From: Methanomassiliicoccaceae archaeon
GTDB taxonomy: Archaea > Thermoplasmatota > Thermoplasmata > Methanomassiliicoccales > UBA472
Length of the DNA: 64,000 bases
Direction of reading: 5' to 3'
Assembly: GCA_963789555.1 (NCBI GenBank)
Contig: CAWBKY010000004.1
Coordinates: forward strand, 7,182 to 71,181
The translations under genes and the position numbers were made by a program. Positions 1 through 12,150 of this stretch are shown piece after piece (the first letter of the stretch is position 1; every line of letters starts with the position of its first letter). Under the pieces are notes generated by a model. That model made no database searches. It had not been told where the DNA came from and was given only the letters and a program-made list of their open reading frames with translations.

Positions 1-1273
1 ATGGTTCGATAATAACCGTCAGTAAGGGAGCCCCACAAGAGATAGCCGAACTGTCCAAGTTGGGCCATGAAGCAAAGAGAGATTACTTGACAAAGACGTG
101 AATGAATACGCTAAGAAGGGGTATCGTGCCATCGGCGTGGCAAGCGGTCCTGAGGGCCAAATCATGTTCAACGGGCTCATAGCCCTCAACGACCCGCCAA
201 GAGAGGACTCTGCGGAGACCATCTCAGAGGCTAAGCGGATGGGTGTGGATGTGAAGATGGTAACTGGAGACCATATCGCGATTGCTAAGGAGGTATCCCG
301 TCGTGTTGGTCTCGGGACCAATATCATCACCGGTGAAGTGTTTAGATCAGGAAAGGCTGATGATATGGGGGAGCAGGTGGAGAAGGCCGACGGTTTTGCT
401 TAGGTGTTCCCAGAGGACAAGTACAGGATCGTAAAGAGCTTACAGGACCGGGGGCATATTGTTGGAATGACTGGGGATGGTGTGAACGACGCCCAGCATT
501 AAAGAAGGCGGATGCCGGGATAACCAGTCGCGGGTGCCACGGATGCTGCCAAGTCCGCGGCGTCCATCGTATTGACCAGACCAGGCCTTAGCGTCATCGT
601 GGACGCATTAAAGGAGAGCAGGAAGATATTCCGAAAGATGAACAACTATGCCATATATCGAATCTCTGAAACGATGCGCGTCATCCTTTTCATTACTTTG
701 TCCATCCTCATTTTCCAATTCTATCCAGTTACAGCGCTCATGATAGTCCTCTTGGCGATATTGAACGATATCCCCATCATGACGATTGCCTATGATAATG
801 TCAAAATATCCAATTCCCCAGAGACATGGGACATGAGAAGGGTGTTGATAGTGGCTACCTTTTTGGGCGTCATCGGGGTGATATCGTCCTTCCTTATTTT
901 GTACATTGGTCTATATATAATCCATCTGAGCTTGATGGTGTCTGCAGTCCTTCATATATCTGAAATTGTCGGTATCCGGGCACCTCACTGTTTTCATCGC
1001 CAGGACAGAGGGTCACTTCTGGTCCGTCCCTCCCGCAAAGATATTGGTCATAGCGGTGGTAGGCACCCGGATAGCTGCTACCTTGATGACGGTCTTCGGT
1101 TTCATCCTCCCATCCATGGGGTGGGCATTGGCAGGGTTGATCTGGGCCTATGGCGTAGGTTTCTCCTGGTAACGGACACACTGAAGGTGTATCTATACCG
1201 ATACTTGGATCGTAAAAATGATAGGAAAGGGACATCGCCGAGTAAAAATACCAGTGAAAAGACCATCTCATAA
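1..1273 (+). pseudogene. P-type ATPase, plasma-membrane H+-efflux type (3' part, disrupted)
   Basis: Motifs DPPREDS, KMVTGDH, GFA*VFPEDK and MTGDGVNDA, then TM segment 'LLAILNDIPIMTIAYD'. In-frame TAG at 401-403 plus several frameshifts. Begins before the window. Confidence 0.8.
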
Positions 1274-1369
1274 GATGGAATGAGGGCTTTCCACCTTCAG
1301 ATAGATAGCCAAGTCCCATGGTTGAAACGTATAAAAAAAGACACATAAGAAACGAGAGACTGGATATTA

Positions 1370-2155
1370 GTACCTTCAAAGCGTACCTTGAGCGGCTTCG
1401 ATACTTGTGGAACTACCTCCCGGTCCTCGGAGAACATATGCGGAACACCACTGCGATCAGTCCACCCACGATTGGGCCGATCAGATATAACCAGTAATTC
1501 GTGAAATCAAGGAGGACGAGGTCGGGACCGAACAATTACAGCGGGATTCATCGATGCCCCACTGATCGGGCTGGCCCAAAGCCCAGCAAGAATGATATAA
1601 CCGCCCACTGCCAAGGCCGCCGCGGGTTCGACGCTTTGGGCCTTGGACGCAGTGCCAAGTATCACGCTCACCAGACCGATTGTCAGCACTATCTCCATCA
1701 TCAACACCTGAAGGTCAGTAATGCCTGGTCCTGGTTCGATCACTCCTATATTTCCTACATTTCCGAACATGGCCAAAAGGAATAGACCGGCTATGGTAGC
1801 CCCAACCAACTGTGCAATGATATATCCAGGCACACGTTTCCAGGGAAAGTCACCCCTTGCAGCGAAAGCAATGTTCACTGCCGGATTCAGATGGGCCCGG
1901 ATACATGACCAGTGAAAAGGATGATGGCCATCACCATAGGCCCAGGAGCGGAAACCTCTACCACGCGACCGATAGATTCCATGACTCACTTCATTTACTA
2001 CGGCACTCCCTGCTGCTACGAGGACCAAGAAGAAGGTCCCTAGTACCTCGCAGAACGATCTTTCACCATTCTAGTTTTGGGTTATCGAAATCCTTTATCC
2101 ATGGCACTTCCAATGCCGAGATGGCCTTGATGTATTGGTGAGAATGTTCATTCAT
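1370..2155 (-). pseudogene. MIP family aquaporin (disrupted)
   Basis: Two NPA boxes (HLNPAV, GASMNPA) and 'CEVLGTFFLVLVAAG'. TGA at 2063-2065 and frameshifts. 3' end approximate. Confidence 0.8.
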
Positions 2156-2515
2156 TCCCTGGCCTCCATGTCGGGAGAGCGTTTTGACCCAGGTATCATC
2201 ACCTACACGGTCTGCCGTAGCAATGACCTTCCGGGTTTGTTTTATGCTAATTGATTGGTATTTATTTCTTTCAAAAAATTGTCGGGCGATAAGTCGCCAT
2301 TGCCTATTTATTAAAAACACAGAAAAAAGCCAAACAATTAAGCAGTGCAGGCACATTTTATGATATTCCTGACCCAAGGACAGGGGCGCCGTTACCCGGC
2401 CCCACCTCCTCTCGTGGTGCCAGGGCCTAACGAAAACCCGAAAAACCAGCGATAATTATTCGCGTGCGAATAATAAAATTCTCCACGACTTCGCCAAGCC
2501 GGTATGTTAGAGATA

Positions 2516-2602
2516 TGGTGCAGGGGGTGCGATTTGAACGCACGGACCACTAAGGATAGGATCCTAAGTCCTACGCCGTTGGCCAAGCTTGGCTACCCCT
2601 GC
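2516..2602 (-). tRNA. tRNA-Leu(TAG), CCA encoded
   Basis: Reverse complement GCAGGGGTAGCCAAGCTTGGCC...GTAGGA-CTTAGGA-TCCTA...GTTCAAATC...CCCCTGCACCA. Long variable arm. Confidence 0.95.
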
Positions 2603-2631
2603 GTTATTGCCGCTGAACGTCTGAGGTATAA

Positions 2632-3081
2632 TTAACGCTTTTCACTCTCGCGGTCAAGGATGCCCTGAAGGAACTCCTGCGCGGAGCGCATGGCGTTCTC
2701 CCGCTTCTTAGGATAGCTCTCCACCTTGGCCCGGATGGCGATGGCATCGTCGGTCGTGGTCAGCGCCTTCACGCCGAGAAAGGCCTGCTGCTTGTCCAAT
2801 CGAGCGAACAGGAAGCAATCGTCGTCCAAACGCATCTCGAGCGTGTCGATCAGGGTCTGGACGTCCTTAAGGTCCAGGGTGCGGAAGAACTGCCTGGCCG
2901 CCTTCTTCTCCCTCAAAGCGCCTTCCATTATGACGATCTTGTTGCCATGGTGCCCTTCGGTGACGTCCCTCTCGAACTCCTCCAGCCCAGAGACGAACCT
3001 CATGGCCTGAACGACCTTCTCCTCGTCCTCGGTGGCGTGCACGAAGGTGCGGAAGTGGACCGATGTGAATGCCATCCTCAC
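2632..3081 (-). CDS. Archaeal RNA-binding protein (COG1325-like)
   Basis: 'FVHATEDEEKV', 'EGHHGNKI', 'RLDKQQA' and 'KVESYP' pattern typical of the family. Confidence 0.8.
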   Translation of the reverse strand: MRMAFTSVHFRTFVHATEDEEKVVQAMRFVSGLEEFERDVTEGHHGNKIVIMEGALREKKAARQFFRTLDLKDVQTLIDTLEMRLDDDCFLFARLDKQQAFLGVKALTTTDDAIAIRAKVESYPKKRENAMRSAQEFLQGILDRESEKR

Positions 3082-3118
3082 CCCATCCTCGCCCGGGTAA
3101 TAATATCCTCGCAGGCGG

Positions 3119-4223
3119 TCATCGGACCGGCATCACCTTCTCCTTGCCATAGCCTACGATCACCCGCCGATAACCTCCAAGCTCCCTATCCAGCTCAGCG
3201 TCCCCGGTGTCCACCCGCAACGCCCTGATGCCGCTCAGCTTGGAAGGGGTCGCTACCACGATGATGTTGTCCAGGCCCACCCTTCGGATGACCTTCGGGG
3301 AGATCTGTTGGTTGCCCCGCCCGAAGATGAAGCCCTGCGCCCCTATCGGCGTGACCACGATCTTGACCCTCTCATTGGCCTCCACCAACCGCATCAAGCC
3401 CGCCTCGTCGAGGTCCTTGGCGATGACCTTTCGGTCCAGCAAGGCATCCACGCCCAGAATGGTCTTCTCCTCGCCAAGCGCCTGGGCCAAGGCCCTGACC
3501 GTGGTCCCCGGCCCGAGGATGTACAGGGTACCCCACTCCAGCAGCAGTTGGAAGTACTCCCCCAGCGCCTCCTTCTCCTCGTCGTCGCCGCTCAGAGCGA
3601 TGGTCCCCTTGGGCGGCTGCATGAGCTGCGCCTCGTCCGGCACCAGCATGTAGCCTTTCAAGGTCGCCTGCAACCGGTCGGAGCGGAACGCCTCCTCATC
3701 GATGTCCATGACCTCGCCCTCCTTGGTCCCGATGTTGCCGTCCAGGAACTGTCGGAGCAGCTCACCCGCCGTCCGCGGCGTCGTGGCGAACACGCCCGAA
3801 TGCATCTTGACGCCCGAGGGGATGCCGATCACCGGAACGGCGCTGCCTACGGCGTCCATGACATCGATGGCCGTCCCATCCCCCCCGCAGAAAACTATCA
3901 GGTCGACCTTCTCCGCCAGGAACCTGTGGCAGGCCTCCACCGTATCCTTTCCTTCGGTCGTTCCCTGAGACCTCATAGACGACCCGATGGCCTCAGGCCA
4001 AGCTCCTTCAGCTATGTCCGCGCCCATGAGGACCCGAGGCGGTGACGATCTCGACCTCGTCCAATGGCAACGCGCTTGCGCAAGCGCCATCCTGGCCCGT
4101 TCCGGGGCGATCGGGACCGCACCTTTCCTCAGTGCCTCCTCCCTCGCCCTGCCATCGGTGCCCTTCAGACCGAGCGGTCCGCCCATGCCCGGCGTACGGG
4201 TTCACCACGAAACCGATCCTCAC
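3119..4223 (-). CDS. ATP-NAD kinase family protein (COG3199-like), one frameshift near the 5' end
   Basis: N-terminus 'RIGFVVNPYAG|MGG..GLKGTDG', then GGDGTA, 'GIPSGVKMHSGVFA' and 'FGRGNQQIS'. Confidence 0.85.
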
Positions 4224-4368
4224 AGCAGGCCTGATGCACCGGTGCAGCGATAAATCTAATCCAGTGTAGAAAAAGAAAAAAATTGGGGAGGTCATCGTGA
4301 GTTCGTCACAGTGTGGTGCGGTGGTGCAGGCCACCGCACCGGGGTCTCTGTGGTGAAGTTCGTAATTC

Positions 4369-5175
4369 TCATTGAGGCAACTGGGTCTTGGCGACCAGCG
4401 GCTCGAGCGGCATCTCGCAGGCCATCGGCCTGGGCGCGATGACGATCTCCGGCTCGCTGACCGGCGCCTTGGCGCTCTGGTTGTCGCGCATCCACTGGTC
4501 TATCTCGTGCTGGAACTGCTCCATGAAGGTCTGGGTCACCTTGCTGCAGAAGGACTCGATGAGCTTCATGACGTTGCGGTCGATGATCTCGAAGGCCTTG
4601 TGCAGGGGCTGGTTCTCCGCCACCTTGAGCAGCAGGTCGTTCTCCAGGACTATGGCGTTGGGGGTGATCTCCTTGAGCTTGCGCACCCCGTCCCTGGCCT
4701 TCTCGGAGCGCTCCCTCTCGAACGTGAACGGGTTTATGGCGATTACGAAGGTGAGGCAGTTCAGTTCCTTGGCGGTCCTGGCGACGACCGGCGCTATGCC
4801 CGTGCCGGTCCCGCCGCCCATGCCAGCGATCACGAAGGCGATGTCATGGCCGACCACCGCGTCGCGGATGGCCTTCTTGGCGCACTCGGCGCAGTACTCC
4901 CCCACCTCGGGGAAGCCGTTGGTGCCCCGGCCCTGGGTGACGTCCTTGCCGAGCAACAGCTTGGTGCTGGCGTTCACGCCCTTCAACGCCTTCTCGTCGG
5001 TGTTGATGGCGATGGTGTGCACGTTCTTGCGGCACCCGCCCTGTATGTTGTTCACGATGTTGTTGCCCGCTCCCCCCACGCCTATGACCGCTATCCTAGG
5101 CTCTGGTATGCCGTTGCATACGATGTTGAGGAGACGGTCGTTCGCCGCCATTTTCTCTATCGCCCTTGTATCCAT
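4369..5175 (-). CDS. FtsZ/tubulin-family GTPase, N-terminal domain only (268 aa)
   Basis: 'VIGVGGAGNN', 'AINTD', signature 'AGMGGGTGTG', 'PFTFE' and 'END.L'. No T7 loop or C-terminal domain. Confidence 0.85.
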   Translation of the reverse strand: MDTRAIEKMAANDRLLNIVCNGIPEPRIAVIGVGGAGNNIVNNIQGGCRKNVHTIAINTDEKALKGVNASTKLLLGKDVTQGRGTNGFPEVGEYCAECAKKAIRDAVVGHDIAFVIAGMGGGTGTGIAPVVARTAKELNCLTFVIAINPFTFERERSEKARDGVRKLKEITPNAIVLENDLLLKVAENQPLHKAFEIIDRNVMKLIESFCSKVTQTFMEQFQHEIDQWMRDNQSAKAPVSEPEIVIAPRPMACEMPLEPLVAKTQLPQ

Positions 5176-5298
5176 CCCTTACGCCCCCGCTAGAGTGTCC
5201 ACTAAGACACCGTTTACATGAAAGCCAGGCCCCCCAGCCTGGCCTATTGTGCATCCCATCCCTCCGCAGGTTCCCAAACCTCTGGAAGTAAGTACCGG

Positions 5299-5655
5299 TC
5301 ACAGTCGTGCGATGGCCTTCCTGGTCTCGTCGAAGCTGTTCTCCTTGACCTCTTTCAGCCTATCCTTGGGCAGGAAGAACTCGCGCAGCGCGTCCTCGAT
5401 GGCCGTATCTACGGACGAGTAGTACCCGTCCTCCACCATGCGATCGATGACGCCCTTGATCACGGCCGGTATTTTCGCCGCCGCCCGGTCCTTGGAAGGC
5501 TTGGTGGGCTGGAGCGATTCCTTCTCGATGTAGTAACGGAGCGCGATCCTCGCCAGATGCGACCGGTTGGAGAACTCGGGGTGCTTGGCGACGAAATCGT
5601 CGATGAGCTCCAAGTCCTCAGCGTCCAATCGCAGGGAGATGCGTTCGTTATCCAA
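5299..5655 (-). CDS. Double ribbon-helix-helix (CopG/CdrS-like) transcription factor
   Basis: 'ERISLRL...IDDFV...EFSNRSHLARIALR' plus a second unit 'AKIP...IDRMVEDGYYSSVDTAIEDALR'. Probable TTG start at 5655. Confidence 0.75.
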   Translation of the reverse strand: MDNERISLRLDAEDLELIDDFVAKHPEFSNRSHLARIALRYYIEKESLQPTKPSKDRAAAKIPAVIKGVIDRMVEDGYYSSVDTAIEDALREFFLPKDRLKEVKENSFDETRKAIARL

Positions 5656-5687
5656 CTTGCCCAGACTTCCTAGTCCCGGAGGACTGC

Positions 5688-5704
5688 GTATGACATTGTC
5701 ATAC
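5688..5704. promoter_or_regulatory. Perfect inverted repeat GTATGACA-T-TGTCATAC, candidate operator next to a TATA-like box
   Basis: 8-1-8 palindrome between the minus-strand TTTAAATA (5709-5716) and the RHH start codon. Confidence 0.6.
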
Positions 5705-5874
5705 AAATTATTTAAAGATATGCCGCTCGCCATCTGGCCGTCATATTTATGGCACAAGGGCGAGGGCCCGTTCCGCTCAAAGAAGAATCTGGCACATCCT
5801 CATCCCGATAAGGAGTGATGGAGAAATGATAATAAGACGCTTTTCCTTCTACCACGACGAACGAGAGTGAAGGA

Positions 5875-8759
5875 ATGCTGACCCGCTCCACCGACATCGA
5901 GGCCAAGTGGCAGGAACGCTGGTACGCCGAGAGGATCAACGAGGCGGACCGGGACGAGCGCGAGAAGTTCATGATCATCTTCGCCTACCCCGGTGTCACT
6001 GGCTACCTGCACGTCGGGCACATGCGCGGGTTCTCCTACGTGGATGATATCGCGCGGTACAAGCGCATGCAAGGGTACAACGTGCTCTTCCCCGTCGGCA
6101 CGCATGCCACCGGCAACGGCCCGATCAGCCTGGCCAAGCGCGTGGCCTCGGGCGACGAGGACATGATCGACTACCTGCGCCGCAACGGCTGCCCCGAGGA
6201 CGTCATACCCGAGCTCACCGACCCGCTGGCGGTGGTGGAGTTCTTCAACAAGGTCTACGTGGAGCAGTACTGGCGCCGCTTCGGCTTCCTGGCCGACTGG
6301 AGGCGCTTCGCCTGCACCACCCATCCCCAGTACGGCAAGTTCATCCAGTGGCAGTTCCGCAAGCTCATGGACGCGGGGCTGCTCATCCAGAAGCCGTACT
6401 ACTCTCCGGCGTGCATCACCCACGGCCCGGTGGCCATCGACGCCTCCGAGACGGACATCGCCTGCGGCGGCTGCGCCGAGACCACCGAGTACACGCTGAT
6501 GAAGTTCCGATGCGGCGAGCTCACGCTGCTGGCGGCCACCCTCCGCCCGGAGACCGTCTTCGGCCAGACCAACTTCTGGGTCAACCCCGAGGTGGAGTAT
6601 GTCAAGGTGGTGTGCGGCGACGAGATCTGGGTGATGAGCCGGCCTTGCTACGACAAGATGCTCTACCAGAAGGACCGGCTCAAGGAGGTCGGGACGATGT
6701 GGGGCGCTGAGCTCATCGGTCAGGATGTGCACCGCGCCCATGACCGGCCGGGAGATCGTCTGCCTGCCGGCCTCGTTCTGCGACCCGAACGTGGGCACCG
6801 GCCTGGTGGTCAGCGTGCCCTCGGACGCCCCGGACGACTGGGTGGCGCTGCGCATGCTGCAGGAGGACGAGGAGGCCTGCCTCCGTTACGGCCTGGACTG
6901 GGAGATGGTCAAGGCCATCGCGCCCATCGCCATCATCGAGACCAAGGGCTGGGGGCCCATGCCCGCCGTGGAGATCGTGGAGAGGATGGGCATCACCCGC
7001 TCCGGCGACCCCAAGCTGGTGGAGGCGAAGAAGATCGTCTACAAGGAGGGCTTCCACGCCGGGAGGATGAACCAGGACTGCGGCCAGTACTCCGGACTGC
7101 CGGTCGATAAGGCCAAGGAGGCCATGAGGCAGGACATGCTGCGCGCCAACGAGGCGGACCTGTTCTACGACCTCTCCGAGACGGTCATCTGCCGCTGCGG
7201 CGAGCCGGTGGTGATCAAGAAGGTGGACGACCAGTGGTTCATCGATTACGCCAACCCCATGGTCACCGAGCTGACCAAGCGGCACGCCGAGGGCATGCGC
7301 ATAATGCCGACGGAGTATCAGACCAACGTGCAGGGCGTCCTGGACTGGTTCCGGGAGCGCGCCTGCGTGCGCCAAGGGAACTGGCTCGGCACCCGCTTCC
7401 CGTTCGACGAGAAGTGGATCATCGAGGCCATCTCCGACTCCACCCTCTATCCCGTCTTCTATCTGATCTCGCCCTATGTCAACGACGGCTCGGTCAGGCC
7501 GGAGCAGATGGGCACCGAGTTCTTCGACTACGTGCTGCTGGGCAGGGGCGACCTGGACCACGTGGCCAAGCGCAGCGGCGTGGAAAGGGAGGTTCTGGAG
7601 CGGATGCGCGCCGACGTGGACTACTGGTACCCGCTGGACGTCAACCTGGGCGGCAAGGAGCACATGACCGTGCACTTCCCCGCCTTCCTGATGAACCACG
7701 TGGCCATACTGCCGCCGGAGAAGTGGCCCCGGGGCATATTCGTCAACTGGTACGTGATGAGCAAGGCCGGCAAGATATCCAAGTCCAAGGGAGGGGCCCA
7801 GCCCATACCGGGGGCGGCGGAGCTCTACGGCGTGGACAGCATGCGGCTGTACTACGCGCACATCGCCTCGCCCTTCGCCGACGTGGAGTGGGACGAGGAG
7901 GTGCTGGAGAACTACGTGGCCAAGATGGACCGCATCATGCGCACGGTGGAGGAGCTGTCCGCGATGGAGGAGAGCGAGGCCATCGAGCCCATCGACACCT
8001 GGCTGCTTTCTCGCATGAACAGCCGCATGGCCTCCATCGTCAGGGGCATGGAGCAGCTGGACCTGCGCAACCTGGCCGGGGAGGCGTACTTCGAGATCCC
8101 GAACGACCTGAAGTGGTACCTGCGCCGGGGCGGCAGCAACGGCGCCGTCGTCGGTCGGGCGCTGGACATGTGGGTCCGGGCCATGGCGCCGATCACGCCG
8201 CACACGGCGGAGGAGATGTGGGAGCACCTGGGCAAGGAGGGCCTGGTGGCCAAGGCCAGGTTCCCCTGCGCGGATGCGGCGGAGATGTCCCAGGCGGCGG
8301 AGCTGGCGGAGGACTACGTGCGCAAGCTCCTGGAGGACGTCAACGAGATCGTCAAGGTCACCAAGATCGCGCCGAAGCGGGTGCTGGTGTACACCGCCCC
8401 GGAGTGGAAGGAGAAGGTGCTGCAGAAGGCCATCGCGCTCTTCCGCGACAACGAGCTCAAGGTGCCCACGCTCACCAAGCAGGTCATGCAGGACGAGGAC
8501 ATCAAGAGGCATGGCAAGGAGGCGTCCGACCTGGCCCGCAAGATGGCGGAGGACCTGACGCGCCGTTCCGCGGACGAGGTGGAGCGCATGGCGGTGCGGT
8601 TCGACGAGCTCGGAGTACCTGCGCCAGGCGGAGGGCTTCCTGGCCCGGGAGCTGCAGTGCGAGGTGGGCGTCTTCGATGCCGCCGACCCGCAGCGGGTGG
8701 ACCCTCAAGGCAAGTCCCGCGCCGCCCAGCCCCGCCGGCCGGCCATCTACCTGGAATGA
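5875..8759 (+). CDS. leuS: Leucine--tRNA ligase (archaeal type), frameshifts at about 6720 and 8610
   Basis: 'AYPGVTGYLHVGH' (HIGH), 'AATLRPET', 'SVPSDAPDD', 'GKISKSKG' (KMSKS) and C-terminal 'PRRPAIYLE'. Confidence 0.95.
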
Positions 8760-8807
8760 TGCCGTTCCAGCCAAACCTTCTTTTTGTTACCTTGAAATAG
8801 CGGGACC

Positions 8808-11800
8808 TTGCTTCAATGGCCATTTCCGTCCGGAGCGGGTCCATTGCTGTTCAACCGTCTGGGTAAGGCCATCGTCCGACATCACAAGCTCATAATCGTC
8901 ATCTGGGTGCTTGCGCTCCTGGTGGCCATCCCCTTCGCGCCGCAGGCGTATGACGCCGTCATATACGAGGAGACGCAGGGCTCGTCGGAGCAGCAGCTGC
9001 CCTCGGAGGAGGCGCAGAGATGGATGGAGGACAACTTCGGCGACAGGGCCAGCACCGGCTCGACCATCATCGCCCTCACCTCGCCCGACGTGCTGGACCA
9101 GGACACCAAGGCCTGCGCGGACGAGATCACCATGGCGCTGATCCAAGCCTCCAGCCCGCTCAACGAGGATGCCAGCATCGGGTACTCCATCGAGGTGGAG
9201 AGCGTCTACACCGTGGTGCGCACCTATTCCACCGGTTTCCTGGGCCAGGTGAACCAGGTCTACTACACCTCATATAATGCCACCAACGCCACCCGGTACG
9301 TCATCTTCGGCGTGCCGCTGCAGTTCTGGTCCTTGTACAACCAGACGGAGGCGACGCAGGAGCTGGTGTTCGGCCTTCCCACCGATTACGCCGCCACCTG
9401 GGCCTACACCAATGAGAGCACCGGCGGCATGCTGTCGATCGAGGAGGTGGACGACCTCACCTACGGTACCATCTCGTCCGCGCTCCCCACCTCCGACCCG
9501 CTGGCCATCGCCTGGCTGGGTTACTATTCGGCCGCATGGAACGCCACCCGGGCCACGCCCTCGGTCGCCAACGACCTGACGCTGCGCACCCAGGTCGCCT
9601 TGGAAACGGGCTATGCCCCGTTCTCCGACGAGTTCCTTTCCCAATTGCCGCCCGAGCAATCCGCTTTCATCAACTCGGTCGAAAGCGGTTTCACCTTGGA
9701 CAACTGGACCTCGGTGCCGGACCGCAACGCCTTCGTCAATGACGTCTTCTTGCAGAACTTGGAACGGATGGCGGATGGTCTGCCCGAAGAACAGGCCGCC
9801 ATGCTCTTCGGTTACTATTCCACCTTCTACCATCAGTGGGACTCCTGGAACTCCACCCGCGTCCCGGCGGACATGAGCGAGTTCGAGGAGGTCGTCACCG
9901 CTTCCGTCTCCGCTTTCTCTTCCAGCTTGCCCACCAGGGAGGCCGAGGTGTTCCGATCGCTGTACGCTTTCCTGGGTTGGGAAGGACTGGCAGGACGACG
10001 CTCTGCTCGCAGAATACAATATAGGTCTGGTGGCAGCGGCGACCGAGGTGGAGCCATGGTTGGTGCAGGAGACCGCGGCCTTGGGGCCAACGCCCTCCTC
10101 CGTCCAGGTCTACGTGCTGGCCGGCCGGGTGGTGGACAACTCCTCGCTGAGCGCCTTCCCGCTGCCGCTGGTCCCGGCCATGGTGGACAACTTCGTCAAC
10201 ACGCCTGATAACAATACGATGATCATCGCCCTCACCTTCTACAACGATGATGGCGAGGTGGTCAGCGGGTCCCGCTACATCGAGCAGGTGCGCGCCGTCA
10301 TCGGTCCCATCGTCGACGAGCACCCCGAGGTCGATACCTACGTCACTGGCGGGGACGCCATCCAGACCGACATCGAGCTGTCGGTGGACGAGGACGTCTC
10401 CAGGATCGACCCGGTCACCATCATCCTCATCCTGGTCCTGATCGGGCTGTTCTTCCGTTCCTTCGTGGCGGCGGCCGTGCCGCCGATGATCATCGGCATC
10501 GGCCTGGGCATATCGTTCGCCTTGGTCTACTTCCTGGGCACGTACTTCATGGACGTGCACTACTCGGTGCTCACCATACTGCTGACCGCCTCGCTGGGCG
10601 CGGGCTGCGACTATTGCATATTCATACTTTCGAGATATCGGGAGGAGAGGAGGAAGGGATACGACAAGAAGGCGGCGGTGGAGACCTCGGTCACCTGGGC
10701 GGGGGAGGCGATCGCCACTTCCGGTCTCACGGTCATCATCGCCTTCGGCGCGTTGTCGCTTGAGCAGCATGAGCTACATCGCCTCCATGGGGGTGCTGGC
10801 CGTCGGCATCGCCTGCGCCCTGCTGCTGGCGCTGACGTTGCTGCCAGCCATCCTGGTGCTGCTGGGCGACCGCATCTTCTGGCCCAGCCGTTTCGATCGC
10901 GAGGAGAGGAAGGACAAGGAGAGCTACTTCACCCGCAGCGCCAGGTTCTCCATCAAGCATGCCAAGGCCCTGTTGATCGTGGCGGTGCTGATCACCCTGC
11001 CCACCACGTACATCGTCCTGACCACCCCCACCAGCTATGATTACATCGCCTCCATGCCCGACTCCGAGTCCAAGGACGGGCTGATGGTGCTGGAGGACGG
11101 TTTCGGGGGCGGAAGGATAATACCCACGTACGTGGGCATGGACCTCTCCTCCTCCGCGTACCTGGCGTCAGGGAGATGGAACGTCACCAACCTGGACGGC
11201 ATCGAGGGGCTTGTGCGCGGAACTGGCCTCCCTGGAGAACGTGGAGGAGGTCATCAGCCCCACCCGGCCGTACGGGGAGCCGATCGACTATGCCAACGTA
11301 TCCACCGACCTCACCATCCAATCCGTGCTGGACGACCAGTACATGCGGACCATGGTGGGGGAGAACAGCACCGCGATATTGATCACGGTGGTGTTCGTGC
11401 AGGAGCCCTTCTCGCCCGACTCCATCGAGAGCATCGACACCATCCGGGACCTGGTCGCGACCACCGTCTCCGCCGGAGGGATGTTCACCGCCGGTTACGT
11501 GGCCGGCGGGACCGCTACGATGTACGACCTGAGCGTGGAGACGAACGACGACTTCCTGCTCATAATCCCGGTGGTCATCGTGGCGATCTACATCGTCCTG
11601 CTCTTGGTGCTGGGCTCGGTGCTGAACCCGCTCCGCTCCATCCTGACCATACTGCTGTCCATCTCCTGGACCCTGGCGGTCACGATGGTCCTCTTCACCT
11701 ACGTGTTCGAGACGCCCATCATGTGGATGGTGCCGCTGATGCTGCTGGTGGTCTGCCTGGGCCTGGGCATGGACTATGACATATTGCTTTCCACGAGGGT

Positions 11801-12150
11801 GCGGGAGGAGGCCTCGAAGGGCAAGGAGCACCAACGACTCCATCGTGACCGCGGTGGGCAAGACCGGCGCCATCATCACCGCCTGCGGGCTGATCATGGC
11901 CGGCGCGTTCGGGACCATGATGCTCTCCGAAGGCTGGCTGCTGCGGGAGTTCGGCTTCGCCCTCATGTTCGCCATCTTGCTGGACGCGCTGGTCGTGCGC
12001 ATCTACCTCGTGCCGGCGATCATGTCCCTGCTGGGGAAGTGGAACTGGTGGGCGCCAGGGCGGCTGCAGCGGACCAAGATAACGCAACGGAAGCAGGTGG
12101 ATGAGGACGATTGGATCAAGAAGGCGCTGGAGGAGGAGAATCGTAATTAG
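8808..12150 (+). CDS. MMPL/RND-family transporter (several frameshifts)
   Basis: 'LGAGCDYCIFILSRYREE' and 'GLGMDYDILLSTRVREE', 'LGKWNWWAP', two TM repeats with large external domains. Confidence 0.85.

Follow-up and report, generated by a model that had tools for sequence, protein, structure and literature searches.

Both halves of the FtsZ subunit are needed for polymerization and for hydrolysis of guanosine triphosphate (GTP), and we know of almost no regulators of archaeal FtsZ. Here we describe a gene that encodes only the nucleotide-binding half, carried on a stretch of 64,000 nucleotides from a Methanomassiliicoccaceae archaeon of the order Methanomassiliicoccales (assembly GCA_963789555.1, contig CAWBKY010000004.1, positions 7,182 to 71,181 of the forward strand; this whole stretch is referred to hereafter as the window, and positions are given in its coordinates). 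The gene (4369–5175, minus strand; 268 residues plus stop, from the list of open reading frames and their translation; hereafter short ftsZ) has the Tubulin/FtsZ GTPase domain PF00091 as its sole Pfam domain, and its product is, with near certainty, a conserved FtsZ/tubulin superfamily protein in which helix H0, the GTP-binding domain and helix H7 survive but the T7 loop and the whole C-terminal domain have been lost. Database records of such proteins are named either “cell division protein FtsZ” or “hypothetical protein”, and we found no published description of a short FtsZ for Methanomassiliicoccales or Methanomethylophilaceae: the main texts of PMC9871819 and PMC8178401 mention neither Methanomassiliicoccales nor truncation, and PMC7203096 holds no relevant passage (the supplements of PMC7439475 and PMC8178401 may list these loci).

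Several described systems offer points of comparison. In the cdrS–ftsZ2 operon of Halobacterium and Haloferax, described as conserved across Euryarchaeota in passages of PMC7439475 and PMC8406309, an FtsZ-type GTPase gene lies directly behind that of a small ribbon-helix-helix regulator, just as short ftsZ does; FtsZ2 nevertheless has a T7 loop, a C-terminal domain and a SepF-binding tail, none of which the short protein possesses, and the partner of short ftsZ differs in being a longer, tandem ribbon-helix-helix form that falls below the CdrS cut-off. A normal cdrS-like/ftsZ2-like pair is also kept elsewhere in the same genome. Bottom-interface mutants of bacterial FtsZ resemble short FtsZ in combining a working top face with a dead bottom face, and their toxicity has been interpreted as a sign that they cap the growing end (passages of PMC8936486); these are full-length laboratory point mutants, whereas short FtsZ is a natural, conserved gene without the whole bottom half. 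MciZ, the peptide that caps FtsZ in Bacillus, has the same outcome as the one proposed below, namely capping and shortening of filaments (passages of PMC8936486), and the FtsZ:MciZ entry 4u39 is among the Foldseek matches of our short-protein model. MciZ, however, is an unrelated small peptide on the FtsZ bottom face, whereas short FtsZ would bind via its own top face as a mimic of the subunit.

FtsZl1 (Makarova & Koonin, 2010) likewise follows its nucleotide-binding domain with a helical extension in place of the canonical C-terminal domain, but it is extremely diverged and mostly bacterial, does without T6–H7, and carries a long coiled coil and an extra alpha-helical domain (passages of PMC2875224). 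Compared with this description, the short protein is no FtsZl1 member, having both T6 (N179 and D180) and H7 and no further domain. We also rejected membership of CetZ: the family profile matches FtsZ chains at E values of 1e-47 to 1e-61 versus about 1e-19 for entries 4b45 and 4b46, which we take to be CetZ. Finally, Oliva, Cordell and Lowe reportedly expressed the N-terminal domain of Thermotoga FtsZ separately in 2004, with the GTP-binding domain said to fold alone; a related entry, 1w5f, is among our structure matches (by profile and by Foldseek), although the Thermotoga domain is an engineered fragment and short FtsZ a natural gene.

The match to PF00091 spans residues 27–186 (E 6.4e-37, 128 bits; 4618–5097, minus strand), the FtsZ/tubulin GTPase domain with loops T1–T6. 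A preliminary description of this DNA, made from the letters alone, had reported intact GTP-binding motifs, and all of them are found in the translation (GVGGAGNN at 31–38, NTD at 58–60, GMGGGTGTG at 118–126 and PFTFE at 149–153). Across 50 of 50 family members, residues G32, G34, G35, A36, G37, T59, D60, G118, G120–G122, G124, G126, P149, F150, E153 and N179 are invariant, as is Cys95 of helix H3 (codon 4891–4893), here part of a CxxC (C95, C98). The above-cut-off PF00091 match, the universal motifs and a fold match to FtsZ place the protein within the FtsZ/tubulin superfamily. Its canonical branch is another matter: the FtsZ equivalog model TIGR00065 scores 192.8 bits versus a cut-off of 295.2, in an alignment that covers profile positions 17–203 of 353 only, and when the Tubulin and FtsZ_C models were run as the preliminary description had proposed, the Pfam scan returned PF00091 and no match to FtsZ_C (PF12327).

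Resemblance to FtsZ ends at helix H7, which reads AFEIIDRNVMKLIESF at residues 194–209. A profile built from the 50 family members aligns to Methanocaldococcus jannaschii FtsZ chains over residues 34–230 only, the match stopping at the last turn of H7, just before the T7 loop. The NxDxxD of the T7 synergy loop is missing after H7 and the region aligned there is helix; the motif is found in 0 of 42 short-type public open reading frames versus 35 of 35 full-length ones. Prolines account for 7 of the last 32 residues, and the reported replacement of T7 by a helix and a proline-rich tail is borne out. On inspection we saw no GID-type SepF-binding motif in this tail and nothing similar to the GVDFIK and DLDFIK in which two full-length paralogues of the same genome end; such a motif is near-invariant in the C-terminal SepF-binding peptide of archaeal FtsZ (passages of PMC8178401).

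The missing half is not to be found nearby. The gap between the stop codon of short ftsZ and the next downstream gene (start at 4186) measures 182 nt and could not accommodate a C-terminal domain. The preliminary description had seen no T7-like peptide in other frames, and a tblastn search using C-terminal halves from three of the genome’s full-length paralogues returned nothing at E ≤ 0.01 in the window, which is free of N (the best match in bases 1–12000, at E 0.094, lies inside another gene). A split gene with an orphan FtsZ_C was also rejected: all 6 FtsZ_C matches of the genome fall in frames of 351–387 residues that also carry the Tubulin domain, and the 91 genomes examined of another family of the order, which we call f7 and return to below, yield two weak FtsZ_C matches. 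The short protein fails four defining tests of canonical FtsZ, those of profile cut-off, T7 loop, FtsZ_C and SepF-binding tail. The anatomy given in the preliminary description holds: the nucleotide (“top”) face is intact and strongly constrained and the T7/C-terminal (“bottom”) face is absent.

Structure prediction with AlphaFold2 from a 50-row alignment (model m0e27f4880d76) gave a mean predicted local distance difference test score (pLDDT) of 83.6 and a predicted template modelling score of 0.73. The GTPase domain, at pLDDT above 90, superimposes in Foldseek on FtsZ chains with a root mean square deviation of 1.2–1.4 Å over about 185 columns. It is preceded by an N-terminal helix H0 (residues 3–22; 5110–5169, minus strand; pLDDT about 68–82) that aligns with the N-terminal helix region of full-length paralogues and is ill-defined in the model of an f7 orthologue. 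Helix H7 is prolonged into a single long helix (residues 191–234; 4474–4605, minus strand) which takes the place of the T7 loop of canonical FtsZ: the canonical H7 would end at approximately residue 215, and the predicted helix goes on for five extra turns, presenting a hydrophobic stripe (positions 213, 217, 218, 221, 225, 228 and 229) that is hydrophobic in 72–100% of the 50 sequences. The remaining residues (235–268; 4372–4473, minus strand; pLDDT 40–57) form a disordered, proline-rich tail that contains the short hydrophobic motif PEIVIA and another motif at the C-terminus. The f7 orthologue is predicted to share this architecture (long helix at 198–239, pLDDT 87.8), such that both models pass from helix to disorder and in neither does the tail fold into an equivalent of T7, an outcome that would have undone the preliminary description. 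Searching the ESM Atlas with residues 186–268 gave a best score of 0.75, below the useful level, and a two-copy prediction of the short protein with GTP (score 0.00, verdict “no answer”) counts for neither side.

Truncation of this kind is conserved across Methanomassiliicoccales. The best match is of the short type in 38 of 41 genomes of the order, the orthologues measuring 228–300 residues (the three that yielded no such match are G001, G022 and G013, which are 59%, 78% and 99% complete, respectively), and 119 of the 120 best clusters in a collection of 5.8 billion proteins carry PF00091 alone, at 162–310 residues. Full-length orthologues, which would have marked this copy as a recent deletion or misassembly, are not what these searches return; the orthologues are equally short. 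The one exceptional cluster, P0118 (377 residues, from a 2120-bp contig), runs as a short-type N-terminus to the G-box and then as a full FtsZ with FtsZ_C, and is most likely a chimera that assembly created where the two share the G-box sequence. We further fetched 80 public loci with the family alignment, 77 of which contain a matching open reading frame: 42 encode 152–300 residues without a T7 motif, and 35, mostly from other archaea, encode 317–462 residues with one. The titles of the 42 short-type records name Methanomassiliicoccales, Methanomassiliicoccaceae, Methanomassiliicoccus, Candidatus Methanomethylophilaceae, Methanomethylophilus, unspecific Thermoplasmata-type taxa and one bin of Dialister hominis. 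This last, from a bin titled after a bacterium (L139; a 230-residue short-type FtsZ with a ribbon-helix-helix gene upstream), is probably a mis-binned archaeal contig.

Short ftsZ is under purifying selection. The ratio of nonsynonymous to synonymous substitution rates (dN/dS) against two congeners is 0.043 and 0.089 over the whole gene, 0.06–0.20 in the H7 extension and 0.11–0.15 in the tail. In RNA libraries from three studies, contigs match portions of short ftsZ and of the gene upstream at 95–99% identity, and one metatranscriptome contig (run X16) spans 5144–5314, across the intergenic spacer. These data hint at expression, and weakly at co-transcription of the two genes; expression is only hinted at because the data are contigs and DNA carry-over is possible, and as all four RNA runs are of this kind, gaps in depth say nothing and the runs give no information on strand or level of expression.

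The spacer in question (5176–5298, minus strand, by coordinates) separates short ftsZ from a CdrS-like tandem ribbon-helix-helix gene (5299–5757, minus strand; PF17723/PF01402), the longest open reading frame of which encodes 152 residues with an uncertain true start; its orthologues measure 116–159 residues. The CdrS model NF058555 scores 31.5 bits on the upstream protein (E 1.3e-7), below its cut-off of 100, and a weak ParR match (E 0.0013) lies far below cut-off. Adjacency was scored with a profile built in this analysis, with six of the 14 f7 loci outside its training set: a ribbon-helix-helix gene stands directly upstream of short ftsZ at 21/22 loci outside f7 and 14/14 within it (35/36 together), the sole exception being cut by a contig end, and at 39 of the 42 named public loci. 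Short ftsZ shares with the FtsZ2 lineage its position directly downstream of a CdrS-type gene, with the reservation that the partner lies below the CdrS cut-off. On the other side of short ftsZ (2632–4186, minus strand) are a NAD-kinase-like gene and a PF01877 RNA-binding gene, in an order kept at most loci of the organism’s own family. Further upstream, leucyl-tRNA synthetase is split over two overlapping frames, 5875–7110 and 6725–8800 (both plus strand), by an apparent frameshift near 6.7 kb, probably an indel error of the assembly.

The genome (1.88 Mb) holds eight genes of the tubulin superfamily: five FtsZ1-like, one FtsZ2-like, the short one and a divergent one (loci C3:63410–69945, C7:35134–36282, C9:28705–29754, C9:164142–165251 and C5:77173–78126 in addition to the window). 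Three of the eight lie in one 7-kb cluster, and the paralogue at C9:28705–29754 has a junk C-terminus. The divergent gene (C5:77173–78126) belongs to a family of two-domain FtsZ-like proteins of about 300–317 residues, with a degenerate G-box and without the NxDxxD T7 motif, that is found across the order (L008:1057–2007, minus strand, being the same locus; also L043, L044, L050 and L051). Over the GTPase domain the short protein is 35–39% identical to ordinary FtsZ. Its best BLAST paralogue, at 39% identity, is a full-length FtsZ of 340 residues encoded behind a CdrS-like gene; this second pair of the genome starts with a 103-residue tandem ribbon-helix-helix protein (68.7 bits with the CdrS model). 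Genomes across the phylum each hold a single clear orthologue of its FtsZ, and at 19 of 29 loci a CdrS-like gene precedes it.

In a maximum-likelihood tree of the N-domain (72 rows, 191 columns, LG+C20, unrooted), the short proteins form one clade (support 95/88). It falls outside the FtsZ1-like clade, to which five paralogues of this genome belong (100/99). At signature residues A36 (loop T1), G87 (loop T3) and C95, the short rows are like the FtsZ2-like rows and unlike the FtsZ1-like ones (C95 occurs in 24/24 short, 21/28 FtsZ2-like and 0/15 FtsZ1-like rows), although this is not independent evidence, since the groupings themselves come from this tree. The identity of the best paralogue, its cdrS-like synteny, the position outside the FtsZ1-like clade and the signature residues together favour FtsZ2 ancestry; most likely, if short of proof, the short gene arose by duplication of the cdrS–ftsZ2 operon in the ancestor of the order, followed by loss of the 3′ half.

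How might a subunit with one face serve the cell? We tentatively favour the possibility, to which we would give rather less than an even chance, that short FtsZ is a “top-face-only” subunit capping the growing, T7-exposing end of FtsZ-family filaments. Monomers of bacterial FtsZ, when GTP-bound, use their top surface to join the bottom end, where T7 is exposed, and mutants of the bottom interface are toxic whereas those of the top interface are not (passages of PMC8936486, citing Du 2018 and Redick 2005). With the top face intact and the bottom face absent, this published polarity implies that a bottomless subunit would bind the filament end and stop growth. The short protein would bind GTP, present a normal nucleotide face and dock beneath an FtsZ-family filament at its bottom end, which bears T7; lacking a bottom face of its own, it could neither be built upon nor activate GTP hydrolysis in a neighbour, and would terminate the chain or cap it. 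Such a cap may be transient, in that the T7 loop of the subunit above could hydrolyse the GTP of the short protein. Likely handles for a further partner would be the amphipathic H7 in its elongated form and the tail, which is under constraint, and the invariant ribbon-helix-helix regulator upstream may link expression of short ftsZ to the division regulon. Six full-length FtsZ genes in the same genome are available as capping targets. The cap envisaged in the preliminary description is made plausible by the polarity published for the bacterial protein; its further proposal, of a regulator dedicated to canonical FtsZ, is not the whole story, on account of f7.

Family f7 is the foremost of several observations that weigh against capping. 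We surveyed 150 genomes of the order, each at least 90% complete and 91 of them from f7. FtsZ_C is present in 58/58 genomes of six families of the order and in 2/91 of f7, where both matches are weak; it is missing in the other 89, and yet the short gene is kept in 88/91. Capping of canonical FtsZ cannot be the whole role of a gene that f7 keeps after losing FtsZ_C. If capping is nonetheless correct, the target in f7 would be the divergent FtsZ-like protein of two domains that is left there, or else the short protein may have a second role independent of filaments. Compatibility of the top face is itself an assumption made from sequence, given that loop T5 is one residue shorter than in full-length paralogues and that loop T3 differs in f7 members. 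The short tail is without the GID-type motif with which archaeal FtsZ binds SepF, and in the unrooted tree the short clade stands in a polytomy with FtsZ2-like rows, with no sister group recovered.

Judging by the likeness of its proteins, in length and identity, to Candidatus Methanomethylophilaceae records, and of its short proteins to those of Methanomethylophilus records as well, f7 is probably the lineage publicly called Methanomethylophilaceae, which we take to include gut methanogens. Its short gene is always accompanied by the ribbon-helix-helix neighbour and a divergently transcribed leucyl-tRNA synthetase. Scans of three f7 genomes with PF00091 gave only two matches or one, corresponding to the short gene and to a divergent paralogue with a length of about 300 residues; over the whole family the divergent paralogue is matched at E ≤ 1e-5 in 81/91 genomes, an upper bound, as some rows cross-match the short gene, and in the f7 genus g24, most genomes of which retain the short gene, it is found in 1/9. 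SepF was detected in 34/91 f7 genomes at E ≤ 0.01, 23 of them over the cut-off. We also considered ESCRT-III as a replacement division system and rejected it, Snf7 (PF03357) being found in 0/150 genomes of the order, in a search of poor sensitivity (the control in Sulfolobus was weak and never over the cut-off). The f7 tail is shorter than elsewhere, with 26–38 residues past position 215 versus 40–64, and a loose hydrophobic tail motif, defined post hoc and counted among related genomes that are not independent, occurs at 13/21 loci outside f7 and 0/14 within it.

Survival of the gene pair in f7, where FtsZ_C is missing in 89/91 genomes, also fits an account in which no canonical filaments are needed. 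Short FtsZ may be an autonomous GTP switch that works with its DNA-binding ribbon-helix-helix neighbour as a partner or effector, for example as a co-regulator sensing GTP or cell state, or as an adaptor–nucleoside triphosphatase pair in the style of TubR–TubZ or ParR–ParM. The two genes are almost inseparable (21/22 non-f7, 14/14 f7 and 39/42 named loci), the hydrophobic stripe conserved along the H7 extension points to a partner protein, and the ribbon-helix-helix protein has its weak resemblance to ParR (E 0.0013), far below cut-off though this is. Adjacency is, however, equally compatible with co-regulation; in haloarchaea the gene for the transcription factor CdrS is transcribed together with ftsZ2, with no sign in passages of PMC7439475 and PMC8406309 that the two proteins bind; and turnover of GTP would be very slow without a T7 loop supplied by a partner. 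We regard such a switch as somewhat unlikely, if worth serious consideration.

The persistence of the short gene where canonical FtsZ is gone could alternatively reflect self-assembly through a non-canonical interface, the amphipathic H7 extension replacing the C-terminal domain to give dimers or a new polymer. Both predicted structures offer an extended helix with a conserved hydrophobic face for this purpose, but all known longitudinal contacts of FtsZ and tubulin, as seen in the matched FtsZ structures, need the T7/C-terminal side, and we hold self-assembly to be improbable. More doubtful again is a two-gene FtsZ, in which the short protein would give the nucleotide face and form a heterodimer with the divergent paralogue of ~300–317 residues, where a C-terminal-domain-like region is kept. 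Both genes do occur in this genome, and the paralogue in most f7 genomes (by the upper bound of 81/91), but it has no NxDxxD T7 motif and a degenerate G-box, is found in only 1/9 genomes of g24 while most of these have the short gene, and is not encoded next to short ftsZ. That the gene is a remnant in decay, a recent deletion or an artefact of assembly, as the apparent indel errors elsewhere in the assembly (the split leucyl-tRNA synthetase) might have suggested, has a negligible chance: it is refuted by a length class and an end point that recur across more than 100 genomes and clusters, dN/dS of 0.04–0.09, invariant GTP-binding residues and the absence of a C-terminal-domain remnant in any frame.

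A natural and strongly conserved FtsZ consisting of the nucleotide half alone is a ready-made means of probing the polarity of archaeal filaments and the capping of their ends. The side result from f7 may matter more: this is a large family apparently without canonical FtsZ, without detectable ESCRT-III and mostly without detectable SepF, whose division machinery is not accounted for by searches for FtsZ_C, SepF and Snf7. It is conceivable, though we think it unlikely, that the ribbon-helix-helix/short-FtsZ pair is a self-sufficient module independent of canonical FtsZ filaments and that in f7, perhaps with the divergent paralogue, it is what remains of a tubulin-based division apparatus. If this were true, an FtsZ reduced to its GTPase domain would take part in, or control, an undescribed way of dividing. 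Cultured strains presumably exist for both branches (Methanomassiliicoccus luminyensis and Methanomethylophilus alvus). Because f7 still keeps the short gene and its regulator, the question of how these archaea divide becomes a testable one, with two named candidate genes.

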